A stretch of DNA of 64,000 nt, from NCBI GenBank assembly GCA_964550085.1, contig CAZJXR010000001.1:13027-77026 (forward strand), in the 5' to 3' direction. The notes beneath the pieces were generated by a model. It was not told where the DNA came from and ran no database searches. It saw only the letters and a program-made list of their open reading frames with translations. Positions 41,121-61,043 of the stretch are shown here, in pieces. Position numbers and translations under genes: made by a program. This DNA is from an uncultured Gemmatimonadota bacterium (lineage in GTDB: Bacteria > Gemmatimonadota > Gemmatimonadetes > Palauibacterales > Palauibacteraceae). Position 1 is the stretch's first letter. Each line of letters begins with the position of its first letter.

Positions 41121-41376
41121 GGCGTCAATGCTAGTCGGCCGCATCGGTCCGCGCCAACCCGACCTCGTGCGCTTGATCCGCCCCTGTAGGACCGGCTCGC
41201 CGGGTCGTCGCACGGCGATCCGCGGCGTCGAGGGGGACAGGTCGGCGTGCCGGTACCATCGACATTGCCGACATGGCTGAAGTCCTCTATCCTGCATGCC
41301 TTCCACGGGGCCGAGGCGCCGGCTCCCAGCAGCGGAACGTCATCCGTCGAGGCCCGGCGAGCCGGATGTGCAACCG

Positions 41377-44300
41377 ATGGAACTCACAGCCAAGGCGAAG
41401 AGACATCTCGATGAGCTGATCGAGAGGCTCGACCACGGGGCCCTCGACGCCCCGGTCGAAGCGATCGGTCTCTTCACACGCAAACTGCTGGCCCGTGCCA
41501 GCACGGAGTTCTTCGAGGCACGCGACGCGCAGACGATCGCGTCCGATGTGCAGGCCCTGTTCGAGTTCGTCGCCGCCACCCCTCCCAGCTCGATAGCAGC
41601 GCGAGTCCGTTTCATTCCGGATCGACCGCACCGTGCGATCGTCGAGACCGTTATGCCGGACTGCCCGTTCATCGTCGACACGCTGCGGGAGTACTTGCAT
41701 TCGATCGGGTTCGGGGTGATTCACCTTCTGCACCCCGTGTTCGTCATCGATCGCGACAGGAAAGGCGGCATTCTCCAGATCCGGGATCGTCGCGCCGAGG
41801 GTCCGAAGACGTCGGTCGTCTATATCGTGATCGACGGTCACGTCGATCACGAGCAGGTCACCCACCTCGAGACGGAGATCCGGGAGCGCCTGCGCCAGGT
41901 CCAGATCGTGACCGCCGATTTCCACGCCATGCTCGAAAAGGCGAACGAGATCGTCGCTGATCTGGAGGTGGAGAAGAAGCGCTTTCCGTGGAGGGCGGCC
42001 GAGTTCGAGGAGATTGCCGATCTCCTGCGTTGGCTGGAGGATGGCTGCTTCGTGTTTCTCGGCTACCGGGCATACAACCTGTTCACCGATCACGCCGGAG
42101 CCCGGGTGATCCAGGTCGAGCCCGGCTCGGGCCTCGGAGTCCTGCGCGACGAGTCGACCTCCAAGTACTTCGAGCCGCAGCCGCTCGACGAGCTGGACGC
42201 CAACCTGCGTGCCCGCATCCTCGGCGGACCGATGCTGATCACCTCCAAGTCGAACGCGGAATCTCCCGTGCACCGGCGGGCACGGATGGACGACATCAGC
42301 ATCAAGAAGCTGGGTCCGAACGGTGAGGTCGAGGGAGAGCGACGGTTCCTCGGCCTGTTCACGGCCAAGGCCGTGTCTCAGGACGCATCCAAGATCCCCA
42401 TTCTGCGCCGCAAGCTGCGCGAGATCCTCGAAGCGGAGGGAGCCTCCGAAGGGTCGCACGACTACGGGCTCATCATTCGCGTCTTCAACAGCATGCCGAA
42501 AGAGGAGGTCTTCTTCGCCACCGTGCCGGAGCTGCTCGGCGAGATCCGGGTGGTCATGGAGACCGAGGGCGTGGACGAGGTTCGGGTGACGGTCCGCCCC
42601 GATCCGCTCGGTCGTGGCGTGTTCGTCATGGTGATCCTGCCAAAGATCCGCTTCTCGGGCGAAGTCAGGCTGAAGATCGAGGAGGCGCTCACGGAGGCGT
42701 ACGAAGGGACGATCCTCGCCGACCATCTGGCGCTGATCAGCGAGGGAGAACAGGCCCGCTTGCACTACTACCTGTCGTCCCAGCTCAAGGACGTGACGTC
42801 GGCCGATGTGTCCGAGCTCGAGGAGCACATCCGGCGAACGGCCCGCAGCTGGGAAGACCGGTTGTCCGAATCGCTCGAGCGCGAGCTCGACGCGGAACGG
42901 GCGCACGAACTGGTCGACCGCCACAAGGGCGACTTTTCCGCCCAGTACCAGGCCACTGTCGATGTCGACTCGGCGGTTCGTGACCTGGTCAATCTCGAGG
43001 CGCTGGAGACGACCGGTATGCAGCAGGTGGTGCTCGAGGAGCTCGACCAGCCTCGGCCGCACGCCGCGCTGCTCAAGATGTACGCTCCGCGGGGCCTGTT
43101 CGTCCTCAGCGACGTGATGCCCACGCTCGAGAACGCGGGCTTTCGGGTCATCGAAGCCGATGCGCTCGAGATCGGACAGACCGGGAGGCCCGGTGCCAGC
43201 ACCATCCACCGTTTCCAGGTGGAGACGCCCGCCGCCTGGAACGTGGACCGGAGGACGGTCGAGGCGCGGGTAGCCGCTGAGCTGACGGCCGTCCAGACGG
43301 GCAGGGCCGACGACGATCCTCTGAATTCTCTCGTCCTCTCGGCCGGGCTCGACTGGGAGCAGGTGGCCGTCCTGCGCGCGTACGCCGGCTACGCCTTCCA
43401 GATCGTCGCCGTAACCAGCCGCAGCGGATCGCGTCGGCCCCTCACCCAGCATCCGGCAACGGCCCGGCTCCTGTACGAGGTGTTCGAGGCGAAGTTCGAT
43501 CCCGCGATCGACGAGTCGGAACGGCGGTCGCTGCTCCGCAAGCGGGTCGGTGAGTACCGCGACTCGCTGGAGGGCGTGCACAGCATCGATGACGATCGCA
43601 CCTGTCGGCGGCTTCTCGCTCTCGTGCGAGCCACGGTGCGCACGAACTTTTTCCAGCGCCGCATGCGGGAGCGTGGAGAGCTGACCGTGGCGCTCAAGTT
43701 CGACTGCTCGCGCCTCGATTTTCTGCCGCGCCCGCGGCCGAAGTTCGAGGTGTACGTGCACAGCTCTCGAACGGAGGGGGCTCATCTGCGCATGGACTCG
43801 ATCGCCCGGGGAGGGATCCGCTGGAGTGATCGGATCGATGAGTTCCGAGTCGAGGTCCTCGGACTGGTCAAGACCCAGCAGGTCAAGAACGCTGTCATCG
43901 TGCCGGCCGGCGCGAAGGGCGCGTTCATCGTGCGCCGCCCGCCCATCGATCGCGACGCGCGGGCCGAGGTGGGACTCAGCAGCTACCGCGAGTTCATTCG
44001 CTCGCTGCTCGACGTGACCGACAACGTGAGCGGCGCCGGCGTCGAGCACCCGCCCGACTCGGTGGTCTGGGACGGCGAGGACCCCTACCTCGTGGTGGCG
44101 GCAGATAAAGGCACGGCGCAGAACTCGGATACGGCCAACGAGCTGGCAAAGGAATACGGGTTCTGGCTCGGCGACGCGTTCGCCTCCGGTGGCTCGCACG
44201 GATACGACCACAAGGCGCTCGGCATCACCGCGCGTGGCGCCTGGGAGTCCGTCACCCGTCACTTCGCCGAGCTGGGGACGGACATTCAGGAAGAGGAATT

Positions 44301-46221
44301 CACCGTCGTCGGGATCGGCGACATGAGTGGCGACGTGTTCGGCAACGGAATGCTGTTGAGTCGGACGATTCGTCTGGTCGCCGCCTTCGATCACCGCCAC
44401 GTGTTCATCGACCCGTCGCCGGATCCCGTCATCAGCTACACGGAACGCCAGCGGCTGTTTTCGCTCCCGCGGTCGAGTTGGGCGGACTACGATCCGAGCC
44501 TGATCAGCGAGGGTGGTGGGGTGTACGAGCGCGGGGCCAAGTCGATCAGCCTCACACCCGAGGCGCGTCAGCTCCTCCGCATCAACGACGAGAACGTGAA
44601 CGGGGAGACGTTGATTCGCGCCATCCTGTGCGCGCCGGTCGACCTGCTGTGGAACGGCGGCATCGGGACCTACGTGCGGGCCAGCACCGAGACCAACGCC
44701 GATGTGGGAGACCCCGGCAACGACGCCGTCCGGGTGGTCGCCACCGACCTGTCGGTCAAGGTGATCGGCGAGGGCGGAAACCTCGGCCTCACCCAGCGGG
44801 CGCGGGTCGAGTACGCCCTCAACGGGGGCCGCCTGAACACGGACGCGCTCGACAACGCTGCCGGCGTCGACATGTCGGACCACGAGGTGAACCTCAAGAT
44901 CTTCGTCGACAGCGCCGTGCAGGCGGGCTCACTCGACGAGGCCGCGCGCAACCACCTGTTGCGCGAGGTGACCGACGATGTGGCAGCGGCAGTGCTGCGT
45001 GACACCTACCTGCAGAGCCTGGCGGTGAGTCTGGATCAACAACGGGCGATCAAGCATGCGACCGAGTTCCGGGACAGTCTCACCACACTGGAGAGGTTGG
45101 GCCAGCTGGATCGCAAGCTCGAGGATCTGCCTACATCCGAGGAGTTGAACGAGCGCCAGGAGGCAGGTTTGGCGCTCACCCGTCCCGAGTTAGCCGTGAT
45201 GCTCGCCTACTCGAAGATGCATCTCAAGCGCGGGATCGCGGATTCGGAGCTCCCGGATGACCCGGCCCTGTTCGCACTCCTGCGCTCCTATTTCCCGGAC
45301 CGGGTGGTCGAAACGGTCGGAGTGGAGCACCTCGGCGGTCACCGACTGCGTCGCCGGATCGTCAGCGCGATGCTGACCAACCTCATGGTGGATCGCATCG
45401 GTGCCACTGGACACCTGCGGGTGGCCCGCGAAAGTGGCCTGCCTGCCGAACAGGTGGCCGGTGCTTGGTATGCGGCTTACAGACTGGGCGACGCGGGGTC
45501 GGTGTACGAGCGCCTGGAGGCCCAGGGCGGCGCCGTCACCGCCGGGCTCCAGCTCCAGTGGTTGTTGAGCGTGGGCGGAACCCTCGAGCGGGCGACCCGC
45601 TGGATTCTGTCCAATGTGGAGGAGGGGTACAGGGTCGAGCGCACCCTGGAGCGCCTTCAGGAACCGATCCGCGAGCTGCGGCGCGAGTTCGGAGGCCTGC
45701 TGACGGAGAAGAGCCGGGCGGAGCTCGAAAACCGGATGGCCCTGCACGAGATGGATGGCCTGGACGCGGAGCTGGCCGCCGATCTCGCCACCTTCGAGTA
45801 CCTCGACGCGCTGCTGCCGGTCGCGCAGCTGGCGACGGAAACGGACATCCCCGCTACCCTCGCCGGCGAGGTCTACTTCGGGCTCACGGATGAGATCGAC
45901 TTTCCGTGGCTCCAGGAGCAGCTGACCCTCGTCCCCCAGGCAGACCACTGGCAGCGTCGGGCGGTGCAGGTGCTGAGCCTGGAGCTGGAGAACGCACGGG
46001 CGCGCATGGCCGGCAGCATCTTGCGGCACATCGGGTCGGCGGAGGAGGTCGAGGGCGCGCGGGCTGACTTCCGGGAGCGTTTCTCGCGAGACTTGAGTCG
46101 AATCCGGCAGGTGCTGGACGAGGTGCGCCAGGCCGACTACGTGTCGCTCGCCTCGTTGATGGTGGCGGTGTCGGCGATCCGGGCCCAGTCGCGGGTGCTG
46201 GCGGAGCGGACCGTTACCTAG
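41377..46221 (+). CDS. gdhB: NAD-specific glutamate dehydrogenase, large (~180 kDa) form
   Basis: ~1614 aa. Catalytic-core motifs (VPAGAKGAFIV, DKGTAQNSDTANELA, GGSHGYDHKALGITARG) match the Bac_GDH family. The long antisense ORF 41287..44883 is a known artefact of this gene family. Confidence 0.85.
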   Translation: MELTAKAKRHLDELIERLDHGALDAPVEAIGLFTRKLLARASTEFFEARDAQTIASDVQALFEFVAATPPSSIAARVRFIPDRPHRAIVETVMPDCPFIVDTLREYLHSIGFGVIHLLHPVFVIDRDRKGGILQIRDRRAEGPKTSVVYIVIDGHVDHEQVTHLETEIRERLRQVQIVTADFHAMLEKANEIVADLEVEKKRFPWRAAEFEEIADLLRWLEDGCFVFLGYRAYNLFTDHAGARVIQVEPGSGLGVLRDESTSKYFEPQPLDELDANLRARILGGPMLITSKSNAESPVHRRARMDDISIKKLGPNGEVEGERRFLGLFTAKAVSQDASKIPILRRKLREILEAEGASEGSHDYGLIIRVFNSMPKEEVFFATVPELLGEIRVVMETEGVDEVRVTVRPDPLGRGVFVMVILPKIRFSGEVRLKIEEALTEAYEGTILADHLALISEGEQARLHYYLSSQLKDVTSADVSELEEHIRRTARSWEDRLSESLERELDAERAHELVDRHKGDFSAQYQATVDVDSAVRDLVNLEALETTGMQQVVLEELDQPRPHAALLKMYAPRGLFVLSDVMPTLENAGFRVIEADALEIGQTGRPGASTIHRFQVETPAAWNVDRRTVEARVAAELTAVQTGRADDDPLNSLVLSAGLDWEQVAVLRAYAGYAFQIVAVTSRSGSRRPLTQHPATARLLYEVFEAKFDPAIDESERRSLLRKRVGEYRDSLEGVHSIDDDRTCRRLLALVRATVRTNFFQRRMRERGELTVALKFDCSRLDFLPRPRPKFEVYVHSSRTEGAHLRMDSIARGGIRWSDRIDEFRVEVLGLVKTQQVKNAVIVPAGAKGAFIVRRPPIDRDARAEVGLSSYREFIRSLLDVTDNVSGAGVEHPPDSVVWDGEDPYLVVAADKGTAQNSDTANELAKEYGFWLGDAFASGGSHGYDHKALGITARGAWESVTRHFAELGTDIQEEEFTVVGIGDMSGDVFGNGMLLSRTIRLVAAFDHRHVFIDPSPDPVISYTERQRLFSLPRSSWADYDPSLISEGGGVYERGAKSISLTPEARQLLRINDENVNGETLIRAILCAPVDLLWNGGIGTYVRASTETNADVGDPGNDAVRVVATDLSVKVIGEGGNLGLTQRARVEYALNGGRLNTDALDNAAGVDMSDHEVNLKIFVDSAVQAGSLDEAARNHLLREVTDDVAAAVLRDTYLQSLAVSLDQQRAIKHATEFRDSLTTLERLGQLDRKLEDLPTSEELNERQEAGLALTRPELAVMLAYSKMHLKRGIADSELPDDPALFALLRSYFPDRVVETVGVEHLGGHRLRRRIVSAMLTNLMVDRIGATGHLRVARESGLPAEQVAGAWYAAYRLGDAGSVYERLEAQGGAVTAGLQLQWLLSVGGTLERATRWILSNVEEGYRVERTLERLQEPIRELRREFGGLLTEKSRAELENRMALHEMDGLDAELAADLATFEYLDALLPVAQLATETDIPATLAGEVYFGLTDEIDFPWLQEQLTLVPQADHWQRRAVQVLSLELENARARMAGSILRHIGSAEEVEGARADFRERFSRDLSRIRQVLDEVRQADYVSLASLMVAVSAIRAQSRVLAERTVT

Positions 46222-47794: not shown

Positions 47795-47869
47795 CGCACA
47801 TCCCTCCCAGTTCGGTGTGAGTGCCGGCGGCCGCGGGCGCGAGGCCCGACCGCGAGCGACGCGTCAGAC

Positions 47870-48010
47870 TGTCGAGCCGATGCTATGCACGTTTCGTGCG
47901 ACTGTCAACCGATATGTCATAAAGTGGCATATTAGAAAGAGTAATTGCTGCTATTTGTAAGCAATAATGATTATTAATCAAGAATTTTATGATCAATCGA
48001 GCAATATTGC
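47870..48010. promoter_or_regulatory. AT-rich divergent promoter island between glnA and the histidine-kinase gene; sigma70-like glnA promoter TTGACA-N17-TAGCAT on the reverse strand
   Basis: The ~110-bp stretch (tcataaagtggcatattagaaagagtaattgctgctatttgtaagcaataatgattattaatcaagaattttatgatc) is far more AT-rich than the rest of the window. Reverse strand reads TTGACAgtcgcacgaaacgtgcaTAGCAT (-35 at 47903-47908, -10 at 47880-47885). Confidence 0.45.
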
Positions 48011-48164
48011 CTCTCCCTCCGCCTCGTGGTTTCCGAGGGGTTGACGGTGTGCCGCGTCCGCGCGCCCCTCGTCGGCTGTTGCCCCCACGCCTCGCTGAGG
48101 CGCGGGCTGTGACTCACCGCCCGTCGAAGCCGTCCATTTCACGGCACTCACGAACGGGGAGGAT

Positions 48165-49529
48165 GTGCAAGCCGACACGACAGTCCTCGGCCGGTCCGTG
48201 CCGGCGACGTCCGACGAGGTCGCCCGGACGGCTGGCCGCACAGCTGCCGACAACACGGCTCGCGGCGCAGCGGGATCGCTGTCACTTCGGTTCAAGATGC
48301 TCAGCGGCCTCGCGATTCTACTGTTTCTGTCGCTCCTCGCATCGGCGTTCGTGACGGTCCTGTGGCTGCCACTGAGCGGACCATCGGGTGACCTCATGAC
48401 CGTGGTGGTCAGTCTCGCTTTCGTGTATGCCGCGGTACTGGTGTTCGCCGGAGACTATCTGCTGACGCGTCTGGTGCTCAGACCTGTGGAACAAGTCGTG
48501 GACGGAGTGGAGAAAATCGCGGCCGGAGACAAGGGGCATCGCCTGTCCGGGCGTGGCTCGCGTGAGATGCGCGGGCTGGCCACCACGGTGAACGCGATGG
48601 CGAGTCAGCTCCTGCTCAACCAGGAGAAGCTGGCCCGCAACGTGGAGTCGCTGAAAACGACCAATCGGGCGCTAAGCCAGACGAGGGCGGAGCTGGTGCA
48701 GGCGGAGAAACTCGCCACGGTCGGCATTCTGGCCGCCGGCATCGCACACGAGATCGGCAATCCGCTCGGCGCCATCCTCGGCTACCTCGAGCTCGCGCGA
48801 CGGGCGAACAATGCCGACGGATGGACCGACGACATCCGGGTCGAGGTGCAGCGAATCGATCGAATCATCAAAGCGTTGCACGACTACGCGCGTCCACGGA
48901 GCAGCACGCCGCGTCCCGTCGACGTCAACCGGACGGTCAGTGACACGGTGGAGCTGCTGGAGGTGCAGGGCAAGCTGAAAGGGATCGACGTGCGCCTCGC
49001 CCGCAGCGAACGGCTGGCACCGGTGCTCGCCGATCCCACGCAACTGCAACAGGTGCTGGTCAACTTGCTCCTGAACGCGTGTGATGCGCTGGCTCGAACG
49101 CCCGATGCCCGCATCGAGATGGAGACGAGCGAGGCGGTGTTCGATGCGGACGTCCAGGATGGTCCGACGCGGCGAGAGTCCGACCCCGCCGGGGTGGACT
49201 ATTCGCACCTCAGGCGGCTGCGAGATCTCCAGGCCGGGAGAGTGCACCTCCGCCTGGTGGATGGCGCTCCGATGGCCCGAATCGTGGTGGCCGATAACGG
49301 TCCAGGCATACCGGAAGCGCACTTGCAGCGAGTCTTCGAGCCCTTTTTTACCACCAAGGAACCGGGACGGGGCACCGGCCTGGGCCTCGCCGTCTCCGCC
49401 CGCCTGATCGAAGGAATGAACGGGATGATTCGGGCCGACAACCGGGCGCAGGGTGGTGCACGTTTCACTATTCAGCTCCCCATCTCGACGGAAAAGAACG
49501 CAAACTCAGCGGAGAAGAACGCGAAATGA
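48165..49529 (+). CDS. Sensor histidine kinase (HAMP-HisKA-HATPase; NtrB/AtoS-like)
   Basis: TM segments, a HAMP linker, H-box [18 protein letters not shown], and N/G1/G2 boxes ([23 protein letters not shown]). Start may be the internal ATG 48294 ([10 protein letters not shown]). Confidence 0.85.
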
Positions 49530-50890
49530 ACGTTCTGGTCATCGACGACGAGGCGGGCGTCCGCCGCACCGTTTCCCTCCTGCTGGAGGACGAAGGGTAC
49601 GCCGTGAACACGGCGGCCGATGGTCGGGAGGGGCTGAAAAAGGCACTCGACGATCCGACGGACCTCATTCTGTGCGATGTACGAATGCCGCAGATGGACG
49701 GCCTCAACTTTCTGGACGAGTACCGGAAGGAGGGGGGAGACGGCCTGGTCGTGATGATGACGGCGTACGGAAGCGAGGATCTGGCCGTGGAGGCGATGCA
49801 GCGGGGCGCCTACGACTACATCGCGAAGCCGTTCGCCCCTAACGAAGTGGTGCTGGTGCTCAAGAAGGCCGAGGAGCGCGAGAAGCTGTGGCGCGAGGTG
49901 GTCCGTCTGCGAGACCAGGTCAGCGCCGAGCGGCGCCATTCGGACATCGTGGCCAAGAGTGCCGGGATGAGCGCCGCCATCGACCTCGCCGACAAGGTCG
50001 CGCGTCATCGATCGACCGTGCTGATCACCGGTGCCAGCGGGACAGGGAAAGAGTTGATCGCGAGTCTCATCCACACCTCCTCCCCGCGCGCCGACGGCCC
50101 GTTCGTTCCGGTCAACTGTGGCGCGATTCCGGACAACCTGCTCGAGTCCGAGCTCTTCGGCCATGCCAAAGGGGCGTTCACCGGCGCGGCGGGCGCCCGG
50201 GCCGGTCTGTTCGAGGAAGCGAACGGGGGGACGCTGTTTCTGGATGAGATCGGCGAGCTCCCGCAAGCGCTGCAGGTGAAACTTCTGCGAGCTCTGCAGG
50301 AGGGAGAGATCCGTCGGGTCGGCGAGTCGAAGCCGCGCGAGGTGGACGTTCGAATTATCGCGGCGACCTCCCGGGACCTCGAGCGCGAGGTGCGCGAAGG
50401 TCGGTTCCGCTCCGACCTCTACTACCGCATCAACGTGGTTCACATCCACCTTCCGCCCCTGCAGCACCGGCCCGAGGATATCCCCCCCCTCGTCCGGCAT
50501 TTCGTGTCCAGGTTCAACAAGGCGCTCGGGCTCCAGATCACCGGCTTCGACCCGGCGGCAATGAAGCATCTGCTGGCCTACTCCTGGCCCGGCAATGTCC
50601 GTGAGTTGGAGAACGTCGTCGAACGGGCGATGGTGCTGGCGGACGGTCCGACCATGGATTCGGAGAAGCTGGCGGAGGCGATCCGGAATCCGGACTCCGC
50701 CTTCGGCCGGCCGGCCGAGAACCTGTCCGAGGACGAGCTGTCGGTCAAGAAGCGGACGGCCGAACTCGAGCGCCACCTGATCGCGCGAGCGCTCGAGGTG
50801 ACGGAGGGCAATCGGACCCGCGCTGCCTCGATCCTCGAGCTCAGCTACCGGGCGCTGCTGTATAAGATCCGGGAGTACGGACTGGGCTGA
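49526..50890 (+). CDS. Sigma54-dependent response regulator (REC + AAA+ activator + Fis-type HTH; NtrC family)
   Basis: REC (DLILCDVRMPQMDG), Walker A GASGTGKE, GAFTGA motif, ESELFGH, C-terminal HTH. ATGA overlap with the kinase gene. Confidence 0.9.
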   Translation: MNVLVIDDEAGVRRTVSLLLEDEGYAVNTAADGREGLKKALDDPTDLILCDVRMPQMDGLNFLDEYRKEGGDGLVVMMTAYGSEDLAVEAMQRGAYDYIAKPFAPNEVVLVLKKAEEREKLWREVVRLRDQVSAERRHSDIVAKSAGMSAAIDLADKVARHRSTVLITGASGTGKELIASLIHTSSPRADGPFVPVNCGAIPDNLLESELFGHAKGAFTGAAGARAGLFEEANGGTLFLDEIGELPQALQVKLLRALQEGEIRRVGESKPREVDVRIIAATSRDLEREVREGRFRSDLYYRINVVHIHLPPLQHRPEDIPPLVRHFVSRFNKALGLQITGFDPAAMKHLLAYSWPGNVRELENVVERAMVLADGPTMDSEKLAEAIRNPDSAFGRPAENLSEDELSVKKRTAELERHLIARALEVTEGNRTRAASILELSYRALLYKIREYGLG

Positions 50891-51309
50891 TCGGGGCGCC
50901 TTCGTCTCACCGGACGCCCTGCGGCGACCTGCGGCTGCGCTCCGCCGGACGTCCCGCACTGACCTCGGCTGCACCCCGCCGCCGCCGGCGAGCTGTGGGT
51001 GTGCCGCGACACCCATCACCCCGGGCCGCCTTCCCACTGGCGGCTATCCCGCCACCCCGCCGCGGTCTCACATCTGCACTTCGACCGCCCTCGACAGGGC
51101 GGGGCGACGCTCGGCCCGAAACGGCAACGAGAGGCGAGGCTCGGACCCAGGGTCCAATCATATAACGTGTTGTAGCAGTGGCAATTATGAGACAGTCGTC
51201 TCCTGTTGCCTCGGACGACGGTTGGCGGTAGTCAGTTCGTTACGTCGCGTCTACTGGCACCGGACCCGCGAGCGGGTCATCTTACGATCACTCCGGGGAC
51301 GCGATCGCA

Positions 51310-51325
51310 TGGCACCGGGCGTGCT
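51310..51325 (+). promoter_or_regulatory. Sigma54 (-24/-12) promoter candidate TGGCAC-N5-GTGCT upstream of the sugar transferase gene; a weaker second TGGCAC lies at 51255
   Basis: tggcaccgggcgtgct matches TGGCAC-N5-TTGC at 11 of 12 core positions with correct GG-N10-GC spacing, ~50 nt upstream of ATG 51376. The upstream copy tggcaccggacccgc sits at 51255-51269. Confidence 0.45.
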
Positions 51326-51375
51326 GTAGCGCGGGTTTTCTCGCGCGGCCCAGGATCCGCGGATGTGGAGACCAG

Positions 51376-52176
51376 ATGAGGCAGCGGTCAGGTTCCTATA
51401 AAAGACCGGACATCCGGTCGTTGTCGAGGCGGCTTCCCGATTTCCAACGGCTGGCTGCCCGCCCGGCGGGGCGGGAGGCCGATGAAGAGCTTGCCGATCG
51501 GGCGCACCGGCGACGCGAGCGGGCGATCCGGGCCTGCAACGTGGCGGTCGCCGCGGCGGCTCTGCTCCTGCTGTCGCCCCTCATCCTGTTGATCGCCATC
51601 CTCGTGCGCCTCGACTCACCGGGTCCGATCATCTACCGCCAGCTCCGGGTGGGCATCGACCGGCGGAACGGCGGCGACCCGACGATCGCCCGCAATCAGC
51701 TGCGCCGCTACGACCTGGGCGGGTGTCCGTTCATGATCTACAAGTTCCGGACGATGCGGGTGGATGCGGAGGACGACACGGGGCCCGTGTGGGCCCGCCC
51801 GGATGACGACCGCACGACGCGTGTAGGGCGGTGGCTGCGTCGCACGCGACTCGATGAGATCCCGCAGTTCTGGAATGTGCTGAGGGGGGACATGTCGGTC
51901 GTCGGCCCGCGTCCGGAACGCCCCAACTTCGTAGGCCGACTGCGCCGCGAGTTGGTCGATTATCCCGTGCGACACCGGGTGCGACCGGGCATCACGGGCT
52001 GGGCGCAGGTCAACAAGGGGTACGACCAGACGCTCGACGATGTGCGCGCGAAGCTGCATTACGATCTCGAGTACGTCCGCCGGCAATCCGTTTGGCTCGA
52101 CCTTCGGATCATGATGAAGACCGTGCCGGTGATGCTGGTGCGGCGACCCGACTCGCGCGAGGAGGACTCGGGGTGA
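51376..52176 (+). CDS. Bacterial sugar transferase (polyprenyl glycosylphosphotransferase, WbaP/EpsB small type)
   Basis: LDEIPQFWNVLRGDMSVVGPRPERP signature, single N-terminal TM. Confidence 0.9.
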   Translation: MRQRSGSYKRPDIRSLSRRLPDFQRLAARPAGREADEELADRAHRRRERAIRACNVAVAAAALLLLSPLILLIAILVRLDSPGPIIYRQLRVGIDRRNGGDPTIARNQLRRYDLGGCPFMIYKFRTMRVDAEDDTGPVWARPDDDRTTRVGRWLRRTRLDEIPQFWNVLRGDMSVVGPRPERPNFVGRLRRELVDYPVRHRVRPGITGWAQVNKGYDQTLDDVRAKLHYDLEYVRRQSVWLDLRIMMKTVPVMLVRRPDSREEDSG

Positions 52177-53180
52177 GATTCGCGGACACCGCGACCGGGG
52201 AGGCGACCCTCGACGCGAGCCGTGACTCGATCGACCGGGGAGCGGCGGAGGTGCGCGTGCTGCTGGCGAGCGGGCGTGACTGGTTCGCGTCCGCCTTGCA
52301 GGCGGTTCTCGAACCGGAGGGTTTTTCCTTCGTCCGGGTTCGCTCAGGTGAGGTGACACTTCGTGATGCGAGCCTCATCGACCCGGACATCGTGATCGTC
52401 GATGAGGGTCTGCCTGACATGAAGGCGGCCGACCTGTGCCGGGCGCTCTCGACCGGCGCCGCTTCCAGGAGTCTGCCCGTTTTGGTGTATTCCCCGAACT
52501 TCTGGCACGAGACGGAACAGGCGGAGGCGATGTGGGCCGGAGCCTGGGACATCATCCGGGAACCGGTCCGCTCGCGACTCGTGGTCGCCAAGCTCCGACG
52601 ACTGCTGGACATCAGCCGGCTGATCGAGACGAGCGAAGTCGGCTCGCTTTCGGATCACGTCACCGGCCTCTTCAACCTGGCCGGGCTCATGCGCGCCGTA
52701 GGCACACTCGGCGCCCTCGCCCGTCGCACGGGGGCCCCGCTCGCCTGCGCGGTGGTGGGGGCGACCGAAAAGCTCGACGGCGAGCGGCGGGAGCGACAGC
52801 GGGAGCAGATGACGGCTCTCTGTGCCCGAAACGTGCGCGGGTCCGACGTGTGCGCGTGGATCGACGGCCACGAGCTGGCCGTGGTTGCCTATGGAACGAA
52901 CGTGGAAGGCGCGGCCACCATGGTCCGCCGCCTGAACAGGATCGCCGCCGCCGAGGTCGGCAGCTCGGGCGCCTATCTGAGCGCGGGTATCGTGGAACTT
53001 CCGGCCTCGGGGTTTGTACCCGACCCGCGGCCGGCCGGGCGCCGGAACGGGGATACGGATGGGGAGGTGGTCTCGGTGGCGGAGAAGATCGCCAGCCTTT
53101 CCCGGTTTGCGGCCGCACAGAGCGCGCTGCGCCAGGCGCGCGCGGCGGGCGGCGGCATCCGGATCGCGGCCCTGTCCTGA
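52173..53180 (+). CDS. Response-regulator-like protein: REC domain plus degenerate GGDEF-like domain
   Basis: GTG 52173 overlaps the transferase stop (GTGA). REC-like N-terminus (VLLASGRDW...DIVIVDEGLPDMKAADLCRAL). C-terminal domain resembles GGDEF (SDHVTGLFNLAGLMRAV) but the GG(D/E)EF position reads DGHEL. Confidence 0.5.
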   Translation: MRFADTATGEATLDASRDSIDRGAAEVRVLLASGRDWFASALQAVLEPEGFSFVRVRSGEVTLRDASLIDPDIVIVDEGLPDMKAADLCRALSTGAASRSLPVLVYSPNFWHETEQAEAMWAGAWDIIREPVRSRLVVAKLRRLLDISRLIETSEVGSLSDHVTGLFNLAGLMRAVGTLGALARRTGAPLACAVVGATEKLDGERRERQREQMTALCARNVRGSDVCAWIDGHELAVVAYGTNVEGAATMVRRLNRIAAAEVGSSGAYLSAGIVELPASGFVPDPRPAGRRNGDTDGEVVSVAEKIASLSRFAAAQSALRQARAAGGGIRIAALS

Positions 53181-53312
53181 GCGCGCCCGGCCTTGGGCGG
53201 CGTCGGACTTGCGGCACGGTCCCGATAGCCTGCCGGCGGTGACGTTCCGACCCCGCCGCCAGTCGATTCGAACGAGAGAACGCGGGTCCCCTCAACCCCT
53301 CGCACGGGTCCA

Positions 53313-54929
53313 GTGGTTGCCGAGTCCGGAATGGGAATCAGTCGACTGGGGAAAGGCGTAGCCTGTCTGCTCGCTGCGGTGGCTCTTGTCGGAGCCTGCC
53401 GGGACGCGGGGAATCCCACCTCCGGCGGATCTCCCTCCGACGGGAACGGACCCCTCGATCCCGGCGGAGATCTGTCGGGACCATCCCTGACCCTCTCCTT
53501 CGCCACCTATCTGGGCGGCTCCGCAGAGGATGTCATCCGCGACGTGGTGACGGATCCGCAGGGCTTCATCTACGTGGCGGGGGGAACCGCGTCGCCCGAT
53601 TTCCCCGTCACCGCCGGCGCCTACGACCGGACCTTCAACAGCACCACCCCGGGCCTGCACGATGTGTTCGTCGCCAAGCTCGACCCGAGCGGAGCCCTGG
53701 TGTGGTCCACGTACATCGGCGGTCCGGGATACGACCGGGCGTACGGGATCGAGATCGATCGAAACGGCTATGTCTACGTCGCCGGCCGCGCCGGCGACGG
53801 CTTTCCCGTCACCCAGGGGGCGTTTCAGACGCAATTCGGCGGCAGTCCGGTGAGTCCGGAATACGGTCGCCAGGATGGTTTCGTCTGCAAGCTGGCACCG
53901 GATGGCGGATCGCTCGACTTCTGTAGCTACTTCGGCACATCGGACGATCGTATCGTCCGCGACCTGGCCGTCGACGCGAACGGCGACATCTATCTCGCCG
54001 CCTCGGTCGTCTCGGGCGCCTTCCCGGCCGAATGGTTCGCGTCGGCGTTCCAGCCTGCCGCCTCCGGAGGCATCGACCTGGTGGTGGCAAAAGTCGCCAC
54101 CGATGGCAGCGCCGTGCGGTGGGCGACCTATCTCGGCGGCGGCGGGGATGAGGCGAGCCAGCCCTCGATCCGCGTCGACTCGAGCGGACACGCCTACGTC
54201 ACCTCCTCCACCACCTCCGGTGACATGCCGACGCCCGGCGGCTTCGACCCGACCTACAACGGCGGCGCGGACATGTACGTGGCCAAGCTTACACCGGGAG
54301 GAGACGGCCTGGTGTACGGCACCTACCTCGGCGGCACCGACAAGGAGTACACGGAGACGCACGAGCTGGCGATCGATGCGCTCGGTCACGCGTACGTCGC
54401 CACCACTACGCTGTCGAGCGATTTTCCGGTTACCGGGACAGCGGTGCAGAAGGCGTACGGCGGGGCGGGAGGCTCCGGAACCGGCGGCGGAACGAACTAC
54501 AGCGGCGACATCTTCGTTGCCAAGATCTCGCCGAGCGGCGCCCAGCTCCTGAACAGCAGCTACGTGGGCGGCCGGTTCGGCGAAGGAGGAGAAGGGGTGG
54601 GGGTCGATGCGCTCGGGAACGTACTCATGAGCGGCGCCACCTTCTCGGACGATTTCCCCCTGTCGAGCAACGCGTCGCAGAAGAGAATCGGCGGCGCCGA
54701 GGATGCGGTGGCCGTGATGCTGTCGCCCGATCTGAGTACGATTCGGTTCTCGACCTACCTGGGCGGTAGCGGTCAGGATTGGGGGCGCACGCTCACGGTT
54801 GGATCCGACGGCAGCGTCCTCCTCGGCGGGGCCACCAGCTCGTTCGACCTGCCGACCCACAACGCCCGACAGCCGGGCTACGGCGGGGGGGCGTGGGACG
54901 GTTTTCTGGTCAAGCTCGCGCCGCGCTAG
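53313..54929 (+). CDS. SBBP (beta-propeller) repeat lipoprotein
   Basis: Lipobox LVGAC, then repeated ~50-aa units with Y(L/I)GG...D.G.AIAVD..GN.YV(A/T)G and DxFV(A/C)KL motifs. Confidence 0.65.
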   Translation: MVAESGMGISRLGKGVACLLAAVALVGACRDAGNPTSGGSPSDGNGPLDPGGDLSGPSLTLSFATYLGGSAEDVIRDVVTDPQGFIYVAGGTASPDFPVTAGAYDRTFNSTTPGLHDVFVAKLDPSGALVWSTYIGGPGYDRAYGIEIDRNGYVYVAGRAGDGFPVTQGAFQTQFGGSPVSPEYGRQDGFVCKLAPDGGSLDFCSYFGTSDDRIVRDLAVDANGDIYLAASVVSGAFPAEWFASAFQPAASGGIDLVVAKVATDGSAVRWATYLGGGGDEASQPSIRVDSSGHAYVTSSTTSGDMPTPGGFDPTYNGGADMYVAKLTPGGDGLVYGTYLGGTDKEYTETHELAIDALGHAYVATTTLSSDFPVTGTAVQKAYGGAGGSGTGGGTNYSGDIFVAKISPSGAQLLNSSYVGGRFGEGGEGVGVDALGNVLMSGATFSDDFPLSSNASQKRIGGAEDAVAVMLSPDLSTIRFSTYLGGSGQDWGRTLTVGSDGSVLLGGATSSFDLPTHNARQPGYGGGAWDGFLVKLAPR

Positions 54930-56577: not shown

Positions 56578-56906
56578 CAGTCTGGGGCGAGGGCCCATCG
56601 GGCTGAGCGCTCTCTGATTCGCGCTTCCAGCCAGCAGCGACGACGCAGCCGGCAAGGCGCTGTGGACGCGGCGCGACAGTCCCCGGCGCGGGCGCAGGGG
56701 GTCGGGCCTGCCGGAGGGCGTATCTTGTTGCGATTACTGGGCATTGCGCCGATCGATCTGGCTGGTGTGCCGTTCGGCCCTATATTTGAACAGGCGGGGA
56801 CACATCGGTCAGGGCCCGACCCAGAGTCGCGTCGATAAGCCGTCGGCGAGGGACGGGCCTGCTGTTTGGCTTGGTTCGGGTGGAACACGAGGGAAAGGCG
56901 GCACGC

Positions 56907-57062
56907 ATGTACGTAGGTCCCGAGACTCTCATGCCGCTCGCATCGGCGCTGGCCGCCGTGGCGGGTGTATTGCTGCTCTTCTGGCGCCGTACGGTGGGAG
57001 CTGCTCGCTCGAGTTGGCAGTTCGTGACGCGCAAGGTCTCGGCCCTGTTTACGGACCGCTGA
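56907..57062 (+). CDS. Small (51 aa) membrane-anchored protein
   Basis: ATG 56907 after strong RBS GAGGGAAAGG. MYVGPETLMPLASALAAVAGVLLLFWRRTVGAARSSWQFVTRKVSALFTDR: PE(T) motif, TM helix, Arg cluster. Confidence 0.35.
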   Translation: MYVGPETLMPLASALAAVAGVLLLFWRRTVGAARSSWQFVTRKVSALFTDR

Positions 57063-57084
57063 TACACGCGCCCGCCGAAGGAGC

Positions 57085-59160
57085 TTGAACTCCGACCGCA
57101 CGGAGGCGTCGCGGATCGATCGCTATCTGCCGAGGGGGCTGCTCGTCCTCGGGGCGGTGGCGGTCGGGTTCGCCTTGTTGGTCGATCTCACCCCATGGGG
57201 TGATGCGGCCGGGATCGGATGGCGGCAGTTCGGCAACAAGCAGCGGGGTCTCGTCCTCGCCGGCCTCGCGCTCGCTGCCGTCGGTGCACTCCTTGGAACC
57301 GAGCGCGGCCAGCGATTCCTTCAGCGACATCCGGCCCCGCCCGCCGACCCCGGGCATATCGGGTATCTGCTGGTCGTAATCGGTTTGACGGCCGGCCTGC
57401 TCGAGCTGCTCCTGAGGTTGATCCAGAACAGCCTGCACGTCCGTTTCGTCCACCTGAGCCCCCATCTCACCTGGACGGCTCCCCTGTCGTGGGTTGCGTT
57501 TCTCACTGTTCCGGCGATGCTGTTCATCCTCCTCGCCCGGCTGCGGGTGCCACGTTTCGGCTCGCGGCCGGGAGCCACCTTTGCGCTCGTCTTCATTGCC
57601 GCCATCGGCGTGCTGGTCCTGTTCACGCCGGAACTTCACTGGACTGCCATCACCCTGCTCAGCGCCGGCGTCGCGTGGCAGCTATCGGGCCGCATCGCTC
57701 GCCATGCCGACGGCGCGAACCGCACGTTGCGACGGGCCGCCGGGATCCTTGTCACCCTGGTGGCCGTGCTCGGCATCGCAGTCACCGGGGCACGGCACGT
57801 CGGCGAGTCCATCCGTCGGGCGCGCCTGCCGACCCCGGAGGCGGACGCGCCCAACGTGCTGTTGATCATCCTGGACACGGTTCGCGCCCACAATCTCAGC
57901 CTGTACGGGTACACGCGGCCGACGACCCCTTTTCTCGGGGAGTTTGGCCGGCGCGGCGTGGTGTTCGAGCGCGCCTTCGCCACCGCGCCATGGACCCTTC
58001 CGTCGCACGCCAGCATGTTCACGGGGGCCTGGGCCGGGCAGCAGGCCGGCGACTGGCAACATCCGATCGACCCCCGGCACCCGACCCTGGCCGAGCTGCT
58101 GGCCGCGCACGGCTACCTGACCGCCGGTTTCGTCGCCAACAACAGGTACTGCGGGCTCAATACGGGCCTTCAGCGCGGCTTCAGTCGATACGATGTGGAT
58201 CAGCTGTCGACTGCCGAACTCATCGCGGCCTCCTCGCTCGGCCGCCTCCTGTTCGGACCCGGCTGGGTTCGGGAGCACGTGCGCAAGCCGGCCGACGAGG
58301 TGAGCGCCGAGTTTCTCGCCTGGCAGGCCGGCACCGGCGGACGCCCGTTCTTCGCTTTCCTCAACTACTTCGACGCCCACGACCCGTATCGGGCACCGCC
58401 ACCCTTCGACGGACGGTTCACGGTTCAAGATCTGCCCCCCGCCCCGCTCGACAGCTCGGTGCCGGGCTTTTCGGCGGGGAAGATCCGCCGCTGGCTAGCC
58501 AGCTACGACGGCGCGATCGCGCACCTGGACGGCGAGCTCAGGCGGCTGTTCGACAGGCTGGAGGATCGGGGTGTCCTCGATCGTACCGTGGTGATCATCG
58601 CTTCGGATCACGGAGAGCAGTTCGGCGAGAAGGGCCTCTTTTTTCATGGAAACAGCCTGTACGCTTCGCTCCTGCACGTGCCGCTGGTGATCTCTTTTCC
58701 CCCGTCCGTTCCGGCGGCTTACCGGGTGCCCGATCCGGTAACACTGCGCGACCTGCCCGCCACCATCCTCGATCTGGCGGGCATCCGCGGATCACCCTTG
58801 CCGGGCCGCTCCCTGGCCGCTTACTGGAGCCCGACGCTCGCCGCATCTGCGCCGCCTGGACCCTTCGCCGGAACGGTGGTGGCTGAAACCAGCGGGCGCT
58901 CGCAGGACGAGGCGTGGAACCCGACTTCGCGCGGCGACATGCGATCCGTAATCTCCGGCGACATGCACTACATCCTGAACGGAGACGGCGAGGAAGAGCT
59001 GTACGACATCGGACGCGATGAGTGGGAGCTGGAGAATCTCATCGCCGCTCCAGGCAGTGAAGTGGTCGTCTACCGCCTGCGGACGCAGCTCGAACGGATG
59101 ACGGTGGGAAAGGGCGAGACGGGCCTCAGCTCCGTTGCCGGAGGCGCAGCGGCCCGATGA
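57085..59160 (+). CDS. Membrane-anchored sulfatase-like hydrolase/transferase (alkaline phosphatase superfamily), paralogue 1
   Basis: N-terminal ~250 aa with several TM helices, then a PF00884-like domain: PNVLLIILDTVRAHNLSLYGYTRPTTPFL, WTLPSHASMFTG in place of CxPxR, FFAFLNYFDAHDPY, SDHGEQFGE, HVPLVI. Confidence 0.75.
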   Translation: MNSDRTEASRIDRYLPRGLLVLGAVAVGFALLVDLTPWGDAAGIGWRQFGNKQRGLVLAGLALAAVGALLGTERGQRFLQRHPAPPADPGHIGYLLVVIGLTAGLLELLLRLIQNSLHVRFVHLSPHLTWTAPLSWVAFLTVPAMLFILLARLRVPRFGSRPGATFALVFIAAIGVLVLFTPELHWTAITLLSAGVAWQLSGRIARHADGANRTLRRAAGILVTLVAVLGIAVTGARHVGESIRRARLPTPEADAPNVLLIILDTVRAHNLSLYGYTRPTTPFLGEFGRRGVVFERAFATAPWTLPSHASMFTGAWAGQQAGDWQHPIDPRHPTLAELLAAHGYLTAGFVANNRYCGLNTGLQRGFSRYDVDQLSTAELIAASSLGRLLFGPGWVREHVRKPADEVSAEFLAWQAGTGGRPFFAFLNYFDAHDPYRAPPPFDGRFTVQDLPPAPLDSSVPGFSAGKIRRWLASYDGAIAHLDGELRRLFDRLEDRGVLDRTVVIIASDHGEQFGEKGLFFHGNSLYASLLHVPLVISFPPSVPAAYRVPDPVTLRDLPATILDLAGIRGSPLPGRSLAAYWSPTLAASAPPGPFAGTVVAETSGRSQDEAWNPTSRGDMRSVISGDMHYILNGDGEEELYDIGRDEWELENLIAAPGSEVVVYRLRTQLERMTVGKGETGLSSVAGGAAAR

Positions 59161-61043
59161 AACGGCTCGTCATCGTCGGGGCGTGGATTGGGCTCGTGTA
59201 CGGAGCGGTGGAGGGGTTGGAGGTGATGAGTCTCTCCCTCATACCGGGGGCGCTGTCGTGGCGAAATGGAAACTCCGCCGACGTCTTGTGGTTCGCCCCC
59301 CTCTTCTACGGGCTCGCTTTCGGCCTACTGGCACTGCCGTTCGTCCTCATCGGGGGCATCGCGAAGCGCCTGCCCATCGATGCCATCTTCGTCTTCGTGC
59401 TGGTCGCCGGGTGCGGGTTTCTGGCGCTCACCCTGCCCAGCGGCGTGCTCTCCGACCTGGCGGCCGGCATTCTGGCGGTCGGGATCGCGAGTCAGGTCGT
59501 CCGCTTGTTCCGACGTCACCGCGGTCGTTGGGAGAAGACCATGACACGAAGCCTCCCGTGGCTGCTGGCAACGGTCGTCCTGGTCGGCGTCGCCGTCCGG
59601 GGGTCTTTCGCGATCCGGGAGCGGATGGCGATGGCCGGCCTGCCATCCGCGAATCCGCGGTCGCCCAACGTCCTGCTGATCGTGCTCGACACGCAGCGTG
59701 CCGACCACCTGTCTGCGTACGGCTACGAGCGCCCCACCAGCCCAAACCTTGAGGCGCTGGCTGTTGAAGGGGTCCTGTTCGAGCGCGCGCACGCCAACAG
59801 CTCGTGGACGCTACCCAGTCACGCCACCCTGTTCACGGAGAAGAGGCTGGTGGAACACCGGGCTGGCGAGATTCGTCGCCCGTATCTCGACGGTCGCTTT
59901 CCGACCCTGGCCGAAGTTCTGCGCCTCCGCGGTTACGCAACGGCCGGTTTCGTGGGGAATATCTTCTGGTGCGGACGGCAGACCGGATTGCAGCGCGGCT
60001 TCCTCCACTACGAGGACTTCTACGGCAGCCCGGGTGACGCCTTTGCCCGCACAGCGCTCGGCCGGCGGATCGCGTACGAGGGGTTGCCCCGGTTCGGGTT
60101 GATCGACGTTCCGGGTCGCAAGTACGCCGCCGAGATCAACGACGATTTCCTCGGTTGGGTGGACCGCAACCGGGACCGTCCCTTCTTTGCGTTCGTGAAC
60201 TACTTCGACGTCCACGGGCCATATCTGCCGCCGCCGCCCTTCGCGGGCCGCTTCACCGATGCTGCGGATGCGGGTCGGCGCAGCGTCAAGGAGATTCAGC
60301 TCGGCGCGCTGACCGGTGACATCACCGTCCCCGGTCTGGGCGAGCTCGAGCAGCTGGTGGGCACCTACGACGAATCGATCGCCTATCTGGACGCGCAGCT
60401 GGGCCGCCTGTTTGAACAGCTCGAGCGCCGCGGCGTCCTGGACGAAACGCTGGTCATCGTCACATCCGATCACGGTGAGAGCTTCGGCGAGCACGAGCTC
60501 ATGTACCACGGTCACAGCCTGTATCACGAGCAGACCCACGTGCCGCTCGTCCTTCGCTATCCCGGCGTCGTTCCGTCGAACACCCGCATTTCGACTCCGG
60601 TGGGCCTGGAGCGCATACCGGCGACGGTGATGGAAGTGGTCGGGTCGAAGGAGCACCCGTTCACGGCGCCATCGCTGAGCGAGAATTGGCACGGTGGGGA
60701 TGGGGACGGCGGGTTGGTTGTGACCGAGGTCGCGCGTCGTTCGACCGTTCCATACTCCTGGCCGTCCTCGCGCGGGTGGTCGCGATCCGTCATCACCGAC
60801 CGGTGGCAGCTGATCGTGCGAGAGTCTGGCGACACGGAGCTGTACGACGTCGTCAGTGACCGCAGCGAGCGGCACAACCTGGCGGAGACCGAGGAGGGGC
60901 GGGTCGTCGTAGTCGACTTGCGCGGACGGCTGGATCGCGTGCTGCCGGATCTCGAGGATCGGGCGGCGAGGTCCGAGCCGGCAACAGGGTCCGAGCCGGC
61001 AAGAGCGTCCGCGTCGACGCCGCTGCCCAGCAGGTCGAAGTGA
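59157..61043 (+). CDS. Membrane-anchored sulfatase-like hydrolase/transferase, paralogue 2
   Basis: Same architecture: PNVLLIVLDTQRADHLSAYGYERPTSPNL, WTLPSHATLFT, FFAFVNYFDVHGPY, SDHGESFGE. ATGA overlap with paralogue 1. Confidence 0.75.
   Translation: MKRLVIVGAWIGLVYGAVEGLEVMSLSLIPGALSWRNGNSADVLWFAPLFYGLAFGLLALPFVLIGGIAKRLPIDAIFVFVLVAGCGFLALTLPSGVLSDLAAGILAVGIASQVVRLFRRHRGRWEKTMTRSLPWLLATVVLVGVAVRGSFAIRERMAMAGLPSANPRSPNVLLIVLDTQRADHLSAYGYERPTSPNLEALAVEGVLFERAHANSSWTLPSHATLFTEKRLVEHRAGEIRRPYLDGRFPTLAEVLRLRGYATAGFVGNIFWCGRQTGLQRGFLHYEDFYGSPGDAFARTALGRRIAYEGLPRFGLIDVPGRKYAAEINDDFLGWVDRNRDRPFFAFVNYFDVHGPYLPPPPFAGRFTDAADAGRRSVKEIQLGALTGDITVPGLGELEQLVGTYDESIAYLDAQLGRLFEQLERRGVLDETLVIVTSDHGESFGEHELMYHGHSLYHEQTHVPLVLRYPGVVPSNTRISTPVGLERIPATVMEVVGSKEHPFTAPSLSENWHGGDGDGGLVVTEVARRSTVPYSWPSSRGWSRSVITDRWQLIVRESGDTELYDVVSDRSERHNLAETEEGRVVVVDLRGRLDRVLPDLEDRAARSEPATGSEPARASASTPLPSRSK

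Follow-up and report, generated by a model that had tools for sequence, protein, structure and literature searches.

Sigma-54 control of exopolysaccharide genes is a theme that recurs across phyla (PMC3162934). In the PrsK/PrsR system described by Haft et al. in 2006 (PMC1569441), a sigma-54 two-component system that accompanies exosortase/EpsH systems is associated with an activator motif and a -24/-12 element (the sigma-54 'PEP-CTERM box') upstream of PEP-CTERM genes; this motif was found only in Proteobacteria, and other regulators elsewhere were left to be found. NtrC is also described to control exopolysaccharide in Burkholderia (B. cenocepacia, cepacian) and Vibrio (V. vulnificus) (PMC5491218), and in Desulfovibrio vulgaris the exopolysaccharide and biofilm regulons of DVU0110 and DVUA0057 were obtained by comparative genomics of upstream activating sequences paired with -24/-12 elements, the sigma-54 consensus being written tGGcacg / tTGCt (PMC4641369). 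Here we describe a locus on a 64-kb stretch of DNA from an uncultured member of the Gemmatimonadota (the whole stretch is called the window below), where a -24/-12 element, P1, precedes the gene of a polysaccharide-priming glycosyltransferase (PGT) and follows the genes of a membrane kinase and a sigma-54 activator. A limited literature search returned no promoter study for Gemmatimonadota.

The gene directly upstream of the PGT gene encodes a response regulator with the full REC-AAA+-HTH architecture of sigma-54 activators (HTH, helix-turn-helix, here of the Fis type HTH_8) and an intact GAFTGA motif, and the gene before it encodes a HAMP/HisKA/HATPase sensor kinase, in agreement with the preliminary description of this DNA. 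As the activator bears GAFTGA, a sigma-54 factor is presumably encoded in the genome. PGT matches PF02397 with an E-value of 7.6e-64 and 215 bits (cut-off 27) and stays just under the cut-off of TIGR03025 EPS_sugtrans (278.6 vs 295.55). It has thousands of homologues, the closest in a homologue search being Gemmatimonadota proteins of at most 73% identity, and the close homologues of PGT and activator alike all come from this phylum; the activator, a protein of 454 aa, has more than 2,000 homologues. The stop codon of PGT overlaps the start codon of a REC/degenerate-GGDEF gene in a GTGA tetranucleotide (52173-52176) preceded by GGAGGA, which supports the translational coupling proposed earlier.

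P1 lies on the strand of PGT, within the 485 nucleotides (nt) that separate the activator stop codon from the PGT ATG (50891-51375). This stretch had been called non-coding, and it indeed holds no credible open reading frame, no Rfam family and no copy of a repeat that occurs elsewhere. The description of P1 as a near-consensus element with one mismatch and the right spacing was likewise accurate: its GG and GC dinucleotides show the canonical separation of 10 nt, and the sole mismatch to TGGCAC-N5-TTGCW is a G for T at the weakly conserved position -15. The ATG begins 51 nt beyond the GC, and transcription is predicted to start near 51336, which would leave a 5' untranslated region (UTR) of about 40 nt. 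Counting both strands of the window, the exact core TGGCAC-N6-TGCY occurs once, at P1, against 0.19 expected matches, corresponding to a chance of about 1.5e-4 per given 100-nt single-strand stretch. The evidence from the window by itself is only moderate, and it is the comparison with relatives that is decisive.

For this comparison, syntenic loci were collected by a genome scan with PGT, a metagenome scan with the C-terminal 58 residues of the activator and exact-protein look-ups; 168 loci were fetched in total, and the loci compared are nearly all metagenome-assembled. Kinase orthologues are present in all syntenic loci, PGT and the REC/degenerate-GGDEF gene lie side by side wherever a locus reaches far enough, and the HTH of the activator (...LSYRALLYKIR.YGL) is kept in all groups. 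In ten of the loci, which we call group A (L001, L002, L081, L082, L083, L084, L088, L089, L167 and L168), PGT has its own upstream region in the order kinase, sigma-54 activator, PGT and REC/degenerate-GGDEF. All ten, which represent five or more groups diverged in sequence, have TGGCAC-N5-ATGC[TC] in front of PGT, about 43-45 nt from the ATG in nine and about 54-55 nt in L167, and these sites make up 10 of the 18 core matches in the fetched loci. Conservation in orthologous loci thus places P1 well beyond chance, and by its own sequence, its position and this conservation, P1 is very probably a real promoter.

The same ten loci contain a palindrome, TGTGG-N8-CC(A/C)(T/C)A, that begins 92-93 nt upstream of TGGCAC in every case. 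When the ten regions are aligned, palindrome, -24/-12 element and ATG stand out as islands of identity, with a weak TAA-N4-TTG block between the first two and otherwise unconserved spacers; a fixed distance across spacers that cannot be aligned is expected where an enhancer and a sigma-54 promoter have to face each other. Five loci, in which PGT comes after Poly_export, lack a -24/-12 element before PGT. In group B2 (L163, L164 and L090) the palindrome follows the activator gene and a conserved CCAGCACGAAGCCTGCATGA (CAGCAC-N5-CTGCA) stands exactly 93 nt further on, before Poly_export and then PGT, so that the palindrome is found 92-93 nt ahead of a -24/-12 element in 13 loci of groups A and B2. 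The nearest relatives of the window form group B1 (L161, L162 and L165), with identities of 86% for the activator, 92-93% for GlnA and 74-75% for PGT; no closer relative with a window-like intergenic region was present in the collections above 86% activator identity. Their palindrome lies 2-5 nt past the activator stop codon and is followed 67 nt later by a weak TGGTGC-N5-CTGCA before Poly_export, the first gene of an operon that continues with PGT, REC/degenerate-GGDEF, HpsJ, Exosortase_EpsH, EpsI and an amidohydrolase.

In the window, the palindrome is the only intergenic match with at most two mismatches. A position weight matrix (PWM) built from 15 sites of relatives, whose training sites score 13.6-31.6, ranks it first among all positions of the window on either strand (128 kb), at 19.0 with 13.3 for the next, and the central 8 nt, GTGTGCCG, recur unchanged in the L163 site. 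Across the loci the stem bases are conserved and the central 8 nt vary, a pattern of a protein-binding DNA site and not of an RNA hairpin. From its place as the first palindrome downstream of the activator gene in 16 of 16 palindrome-bearing loci and from the fixed distance to the sigma-54 element, we infer that the adjacent activator binds it.

Taking this evidence together, we consider it likely, with a probability of roughly 0.7, that P1 is a functional sigma-54 promoter of the PGT operon on which the adjacent activator acts through the palindrome. P1 would transcribe a two-gene operon, possibly of three genes, consisting of PGT and the coupled REC/degenerate-GGDEF gene. Such a promoter would need an AAA+ enhancer-binding protein, for which the response regulator encoded directly upstream is the likeliest candidate; it would be phosphorylated by the membrane HAMP kinase, bind the palindrome as a dimer or oligomer and reach the sigma-54 holoenzyme at the promoter through a DNA loop. 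The features of the locus are collected in Table 1.

Table 1. Features of the PGT locus, with positions in the window
Feature	Coordinates	Strand	Remark
glnA promoter, sigma-70-type, TTGACA-17-TAGCAT	47908-47880	minus	conserved in six relatives
Sensor histidine kinase, HAMP/HisKA/HATPase_c	48165-49529	plus	Pfam; NCBIfam; hydropathy
Sigma-54 enhancer-binding response regulator, REC + Sigma54_activat + HTH_8	49526-50890	plus	Pfam
Palindrome TGTGGGTGTGCCGCGACA, candidate enhancer (upstream activating sequence)	50994-51011		316 nt upstream of P1 -24
A+T-richer tract with TAACGTGTTG (TAA-N4-TTG)	51150-51200		GC down to 0.61
P2, weaker -24/-12-like element, TGGCACCGGACCCGCG	51255-51270	plus	second TGGCAC, 55 nt upstream of P1
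P1, predicted sigma-54 promoter, TGGCACCGGGCGTGCT	51310-51325	plus	GG 51311-51312, GC 51323-51324
Shine-Dalgarno sequence GGAG	51367-51370	plus	5 nt ahead of PGT ATG
PGT, small polyprenyl-phosphate sugar-phosphate transferase (Bac_transf, priming glycosyltransferase), 266 aa	51376-52176	plus	PF02397
REC + degenerate GGDEF protein	52173-53180	plus	overlaps PGT stop
SBBP beta-propeller protein, lipoprotein-like signal	53313-54929	plus	Pfam SBBP
Second palindrome copy TGTGGACGCGGCGCGACA	56661-56678		after amidohydrolase gene; same position occupied in L161 (9947)

Several observations weigh against this interpretation, and they bear in part on the promoter itself and in part on the assignment of its activator. 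The 1-mismatch -24/-12 pattern is not enriched in the window, with 2 matches against 0.84 expected; other 1-mismatch matches, at 14367 and 26984, are overlapped by long open reading frames in both orientations and are therefore probably coding. In a promoter scan of the kind recommended earlier, a 22-column PWM trained on the ten related promoters (leave-one-out scores 14-32) did not place P1 among the ten best positions of the window, and shuffled windows reached similar maxima. The low rank likely stems from penalties for the G at -15 and the differing spacer, and since the matrix is probably overfitted, we relied on the exact-core counts and on conservation instead. The intergenic region of the window cannot be aligned to that of any relative, being atypically long and rearranged compared with all of them, and the B1 loci have no canonical -24/-12 element before PGT, so P1 is not conserved in the window's own sub-lineage. 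Together with the missing terminator prediction past the activator gene, these points would fit P1 being a chance match or decayed relic, with PGT expressed by read-through from the kinase and activator genes or from an unrecognised housekeeping promoter. We regard this as very improbable, given that the exact-core match is unique and in the expected place, that the same element is kept at the same distance from the ATG in ten loci, and that no sigma-70-like site was found on the plus strand of the intergenic region.

No RpoN box was found in the 64-kb window. The palindrome lies 316 nt from P1 and not 93, which is atypical for its own family, and none was found 93 nt upstream of P1 or P2; a palindromic enhancer of NtrC type 80-200 nt upstream, as anticipated in the preliminary description, did not materialize, the only good palindrome being the one at 316 nt. 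Enhancer-binding proteins are known to act from distances of this order. Activators with the identical HTH are furthermore encoded in type IV pilus clusters in which no TGTGG-N8-CCACA was found, so that the link between palindrome and activator is a presumed one. P1 could accordingly be genuine and yet be activated by a different enhancer-binding protein, the palindrome being the site of another factor or a structural or terminator-like element: it often sits just past stop codons, of the activator gene in L161, L162 and L165, of the amidohydrolase gene in the window and L161, and of CitMHS in L002, its second copy has no -24/-12 element beside it, and L163 and L164 have genes for another activator-kinase pair nearby. 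We nevertheless judge this explanation unlikely, since a kept stem around a variable centre is the pattern of a protein site, the palindrome is not followed by a T-run, its distance of exactly 92-93 nt in 13 loci whose spacers cannot be aligned argues for functional cooperation with the sigma-54 promoter, and the activator gene is always the regulator gene adjoining the palindrome.

It had also been proposed that the circuit links nitrogen signalling to polysaccharide synthesis, with glnA as a further or alternative target, and the kinase-activator pair could in that case be the organism's NtrB/NtrC system. The glnA gene indeed stands divergently next to the kinase gene, an arrangement kept in the window, L002, L090 and L161-L164, it is adjoined by a 1641-aa open reading frame (41296-46221) that reads like a large NAD-specific glutamate dehydrogenase (putative), and NtrC control of exopolysaccharide has precedents (PMC5491218). 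The proteins do not fit this role. By hydropathy, the kinase has two transmembrane segments, at about residues 45-68 and 76-98, which are connected on the outside by about 8-10 residues and precede HAMP; translation may in fact begin at M45, near position 48297. Two transmembrane segments with a very short loop and HAMP correspond to the layout of an intramembrane or envelope sensor and not of NtrB, Pfam returned no PAS domain in the kinase, and its NCBIfam matches are led by the AtoS, VirA-like and ZraS models but remain far under cut-off (AtoS 209.9 vs 646). The activator had been called NtrC-like, which holds for its sigma-54 activator architecture but not for family membership, its scores being 422.6 for NtrC TIGR01818 (cut-off 558.6) and 356.5 for PRK10923 (cut-off 620), with AtoC scoring above NtrC at 512 (cut-off 714). 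The glnA promoter is of sigma-70 type in seven loci, with TTGACR, 17-18 nt and TGCATAGCAT or a variant, and a sigma-54 promoter or TGTGG-type palindrome upstream of glnA was rejected, as none is conserved; the conserved downstream partners of the pair are polysaccharide, exosortase or pilus genes. With a kinase unlike NtrB, an activator below the NtrC cut-off and a sigma-70-type glnA promoter, the nitrogen reading is unsupported, and we consider it hardly plausible. Of the enhancer-dependent circuit proposed earlier, what stands is the -24/-12 promoter serving the PGT operon, conserved in ten loci, with activator and kinase adjacent; the nitrogen part and the control of glnA are not supported.

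Apart from P1 and the palindrome, the intergenic region of the window contains the second TGGCAC already noted 55 nt upstream, at 51255 (TGGCACCGGACCCGC), which has two mismatches to the consensus and belongs to P2, an element that none of the relatives has. Aligned with each other, the 55-nt segments 51255-51309 and 51310-51364 do better than 498 of 500 shuffles, which suggests local duplication as one source of the extra intergenic length, and P2 probably arose when about 55 nt were duplicated in this way. An origin of the approximately 223 extra nt from a mobile element or repeat was rejected, as no second copy exists in the window or the fetched loci, and so was a decayed Poly_export pseudogene, for which tblastn gave no similarity. 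Small or antisense genes were dismissed for their Arg/Gly/Pro-rich composition or non-ATG start codons, and a riboswitch or small RNA for want of an Rfam match. A conserved hairpin just past the -12 element was rejected as well: hairpins can be drawn there in every locus, with 5' arms upstream of the predicted start, and the 5' UTRs fold no better than shuffles (z -1.6 to +1.2, +0.76 in the window). The A+T-richer tract between palindrome and promoter is possibly a DNA-bending site similar to those of integration host factor; a TAA-N4-TTG-like block is partly kept at this place in relatives, at promoter distances unlike that in the window. On the minus strand, a sigma-70-like TTGCCA-16-TATGAT (51184-51157, 10 of 12 matches) points to the left within the intergenic region, and no credible gene or RNA was found downstream of it. 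The 11-mer CGTGYTGTAGC occurs twice, within the A+T-rich tract (51166-51176) and overlapping the -12 element of P1 (51320-51330).

The second gene of the operon had been read as a REC plus degenerate GGDEF protein, and a profile of nine orthologues, aligned over REC and the C-terminal domain, confirms this by matching PleD, WspR and the GGDEF-only chain 3ign (E 1e-6), with RESD aligned to the inhibitory site (I-site) RAID of PleD and the degenerate motif to GGEEF. Pfam GGDEF itself gives only a trace match. The GG(D/E)EF position reads DGHEL in the window and varies in orthologues (DGLDL, AEADF and others), so judged by sequence the protein is not a cyclase. An RxxD motif of the I-site (RGSD) stands 5 residues upstream of that position, and R-x-S-D is invariant in the nine orthologues. 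The REC acceptor aspartate is present in eight of nine sequences, within an atypical acidic pocket. Keeping the I-site motif while losing the catalytic one makes an effector responsive to cyclic di-GMP (c-di-GMP) and/or phosphorylation likelier than a cyclase, and our best guess is a c-di-GMP-binding effector, which would act on polysaccharide synthesis.

Downstream of this gene, no terminator is predicted on the plus strand of the 132-nt gap 53181-53312, and the SBBP gene may be co-transcribed with the PGT operon. By synteny it fills the place that HpsJ, exosortase and EpsI occupy in relatives: the window retains PGT, REC/degenerate-GGDEF and the amidohydrolase, with the SBBP lipoprotein gene in between, and Poly_export, HpsJ, exosortase and EpsI are all absent from its 64 kb. 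The module is best read as the local remnant of a Gemmatimonadota-wide surface-polysaccharide cluster, which in the closest relatives also encodes Poly_export, HpsJ, exosortase and EpsI, lost at the window locus.

In the B1 loci, the leader of about 175 nt before Poly_export (L161 3552-3727, L162 4003-4179, L165 3016-3192) contains two conserved elements, a GC-rich hairpin with a T-run behind it and a GTGCCGGGCAA block ahead of the start codon; it finds no match in Rfam and has the appearance of an attenuator or of a leader RNA of unknown type. Other relatives (L002 7751-10555, L168 5915-8769, L167 6133-8813) carry genes downstream of REC/degenerate-GGDEF either for the synthesis of 3'-phosphoadenosine-5'-phosphosulfate (inositol-phosphatase/CysQ-like, adenosine-5'-phosphosulfate kinase and ATP sulfurylase) or for GlmS and UDP-N-acetylglucosamine 2-epimerase, which hints at sulfated or amino-sugar polysaccharides.

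The palindrome copy behind the amidohydrolase gene may be another site of the same regulator. The sole -24/-12 candidate after it, at 56959, was rejected for lying inside a conserved mini-ORF (open reading frame). In this region (window 56661-57063, L161 9947-10288) a conserved CTATATTTGA follows about 120 nt past the palindrome, resembling the Bacteroidetes-type -7 box TAnnTTTG, and next comes the conserved mini-ORF of 51 aa, MYVGPETLMPLASALAAVAGVLLLFWRR..., whose layout of motif, transmembrane helix and RR bears a weak resemblance to exosortase sorting signals (VPEID-CTERM, E 0.025, below cut-off). Three tandem PF00884 paralogues of the membrane-anchored sulfatase/alkaline-phosphatase superfamily, overlapping end to end, occupy 57085-62947, and these enzymes may modify the cell envelope or polysaccharides. 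On the other side of the locus, the stretch upstream of the glnA promoter (47795-48160) combines an A+T-rich tract, a GCAATATTGC palindrome and ATTGC/GCAAT repeats, and could be a regulator site.

What the locus offers in the first place is a cis-regulatory annotation of a Gemmatimonadota surface-polysaccharide locus, comprising promoter, candidate enhancer, operon and regulator. It adds a phylum to those in which sigma-54 is linked to the cell exterior and points to a regulator other than PrsKR beside exosortase genes. The fixed enhancer-promoter spacing of 93 bp, the palindrome and the REC/degenerate-GGDEF partner are predictions that can be tested directly. Sigma-54 control of surface polysaccharides is already familiar, and in this respect the finding is solid but unsurprising and overturns nothing. 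A more far-reaching view, which we regard as doubtful, is that the window holds the reduced form of a phylum-wide, non-PrsKR module in which a HAMP kinase feeds both a sigma-54 activator and the REC/degenerate-GGDEF protein. If so, an intramembrane-sensing kinase would supply two response regulators, one of which would turn on the PGT operon (and export and exosortase genes where present) from TGTGG-N8-CCACA at 93 bp from the promoter, while the other would gate the priming step post-translationally in response to c-di-GMP; the window would then have lost the export and exosortase genes and re-spaced its enhancer.

Turning to the known systems, a first resemblance is to PilS/PilR, the sigma-54-dependent regulators of the type IV pilin gene. 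Other Gemmatimonadota have kinase-activator pairs that share 70-72% identity and the HTH (...LDLSYRALLYKIRDYGL) with the pair of the window and that sit within type IV pilus clusters of the order pilin, kinase, activator, minor pilins and pilMNOPQ, where the pilin gene is preceded by TGGTCCCGAG(T/C)TTGCA (TGGTCC-N5-TTGCA), a sigma-54-like promoter. Going by these sequences, the system of L085, L169 and L170 is a PilSR-like system in Gemmatimonadota; conserved direct repeats CGTTGC-N4-TGC are found further upstream of the pilin gene in these loci (about 8100-19400 in L169). In contrast to PilS/PilR, pilus genes are missing beside the pair in the window and its syntenic relatives, just as the pilus loci have no palindrome. 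In the more far-reaching view given above, activators of the same family, with an identical DNA-reading helix, at sigma-54 pilin promoters could point to a switch between pili and polysaccharide.

For the REC/degenerate-GGDEF protein, the known counterparts are degenerate-GGDEF c-di-GMP receptors encoded in polysaccharide operons, such as PelD and those of the PssE type, and PopA for the combination of REC with a degenerate GGDEF domain. It shares with them a GGDEF fold without catalytic motif, an RxxD at the canonical distance and the polysaccharide gene context, and differs in its atypical REC pocket and in its domain order, one REC followed by the degenerate GGDEF, which is that of PleD- and WspR-like cyclases.

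The DVU0110 and DVUA0057 systems likewise combine two-component GAFTGA activators with predicted regulons of polysaccharide and biofilm operons, but belong to another phylum and use other binding motifs. With the NtrB/NtrC control of exopolysaccharide the module has in common a REC-AAA+-HTH sigma-54 activator driving polysaccharide genes and the proximity of glnA, and it departs from it in kinase, activator score and glnA promoter, as outlined above. PrsK/PrsR is similar in organization: the genes of a membrane kinase and an NtrC-type activator adjoin those for exopolysaccharide and exosortase functions (Exosortase_EpsH and EpsI in the B1 operon), and the targets lie behind long non-coding regions with an activator motif followed by a -24/-12 element. 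Unlike PrsR, however, the activator scores only 363.9 against TIGR02915 (cut-off 502.6), the PrsK model is absent among the best 25 of the kinase's 80 NCBIfam matches, no PrsT-like TPR gene was seen, the 64 kb of the window hold no exosortase, the upstream motif is the TGTGG-N8-CCACA palindrome at a fixed 93 nt and not motif 1 of Haft et al., and the target is a PGT/export operon and not the genes of PEP-CTERM proteins. The module thus appears to act like known systems, while its protein sequences fall outside PrsKR, NtrBC and AtoSC.

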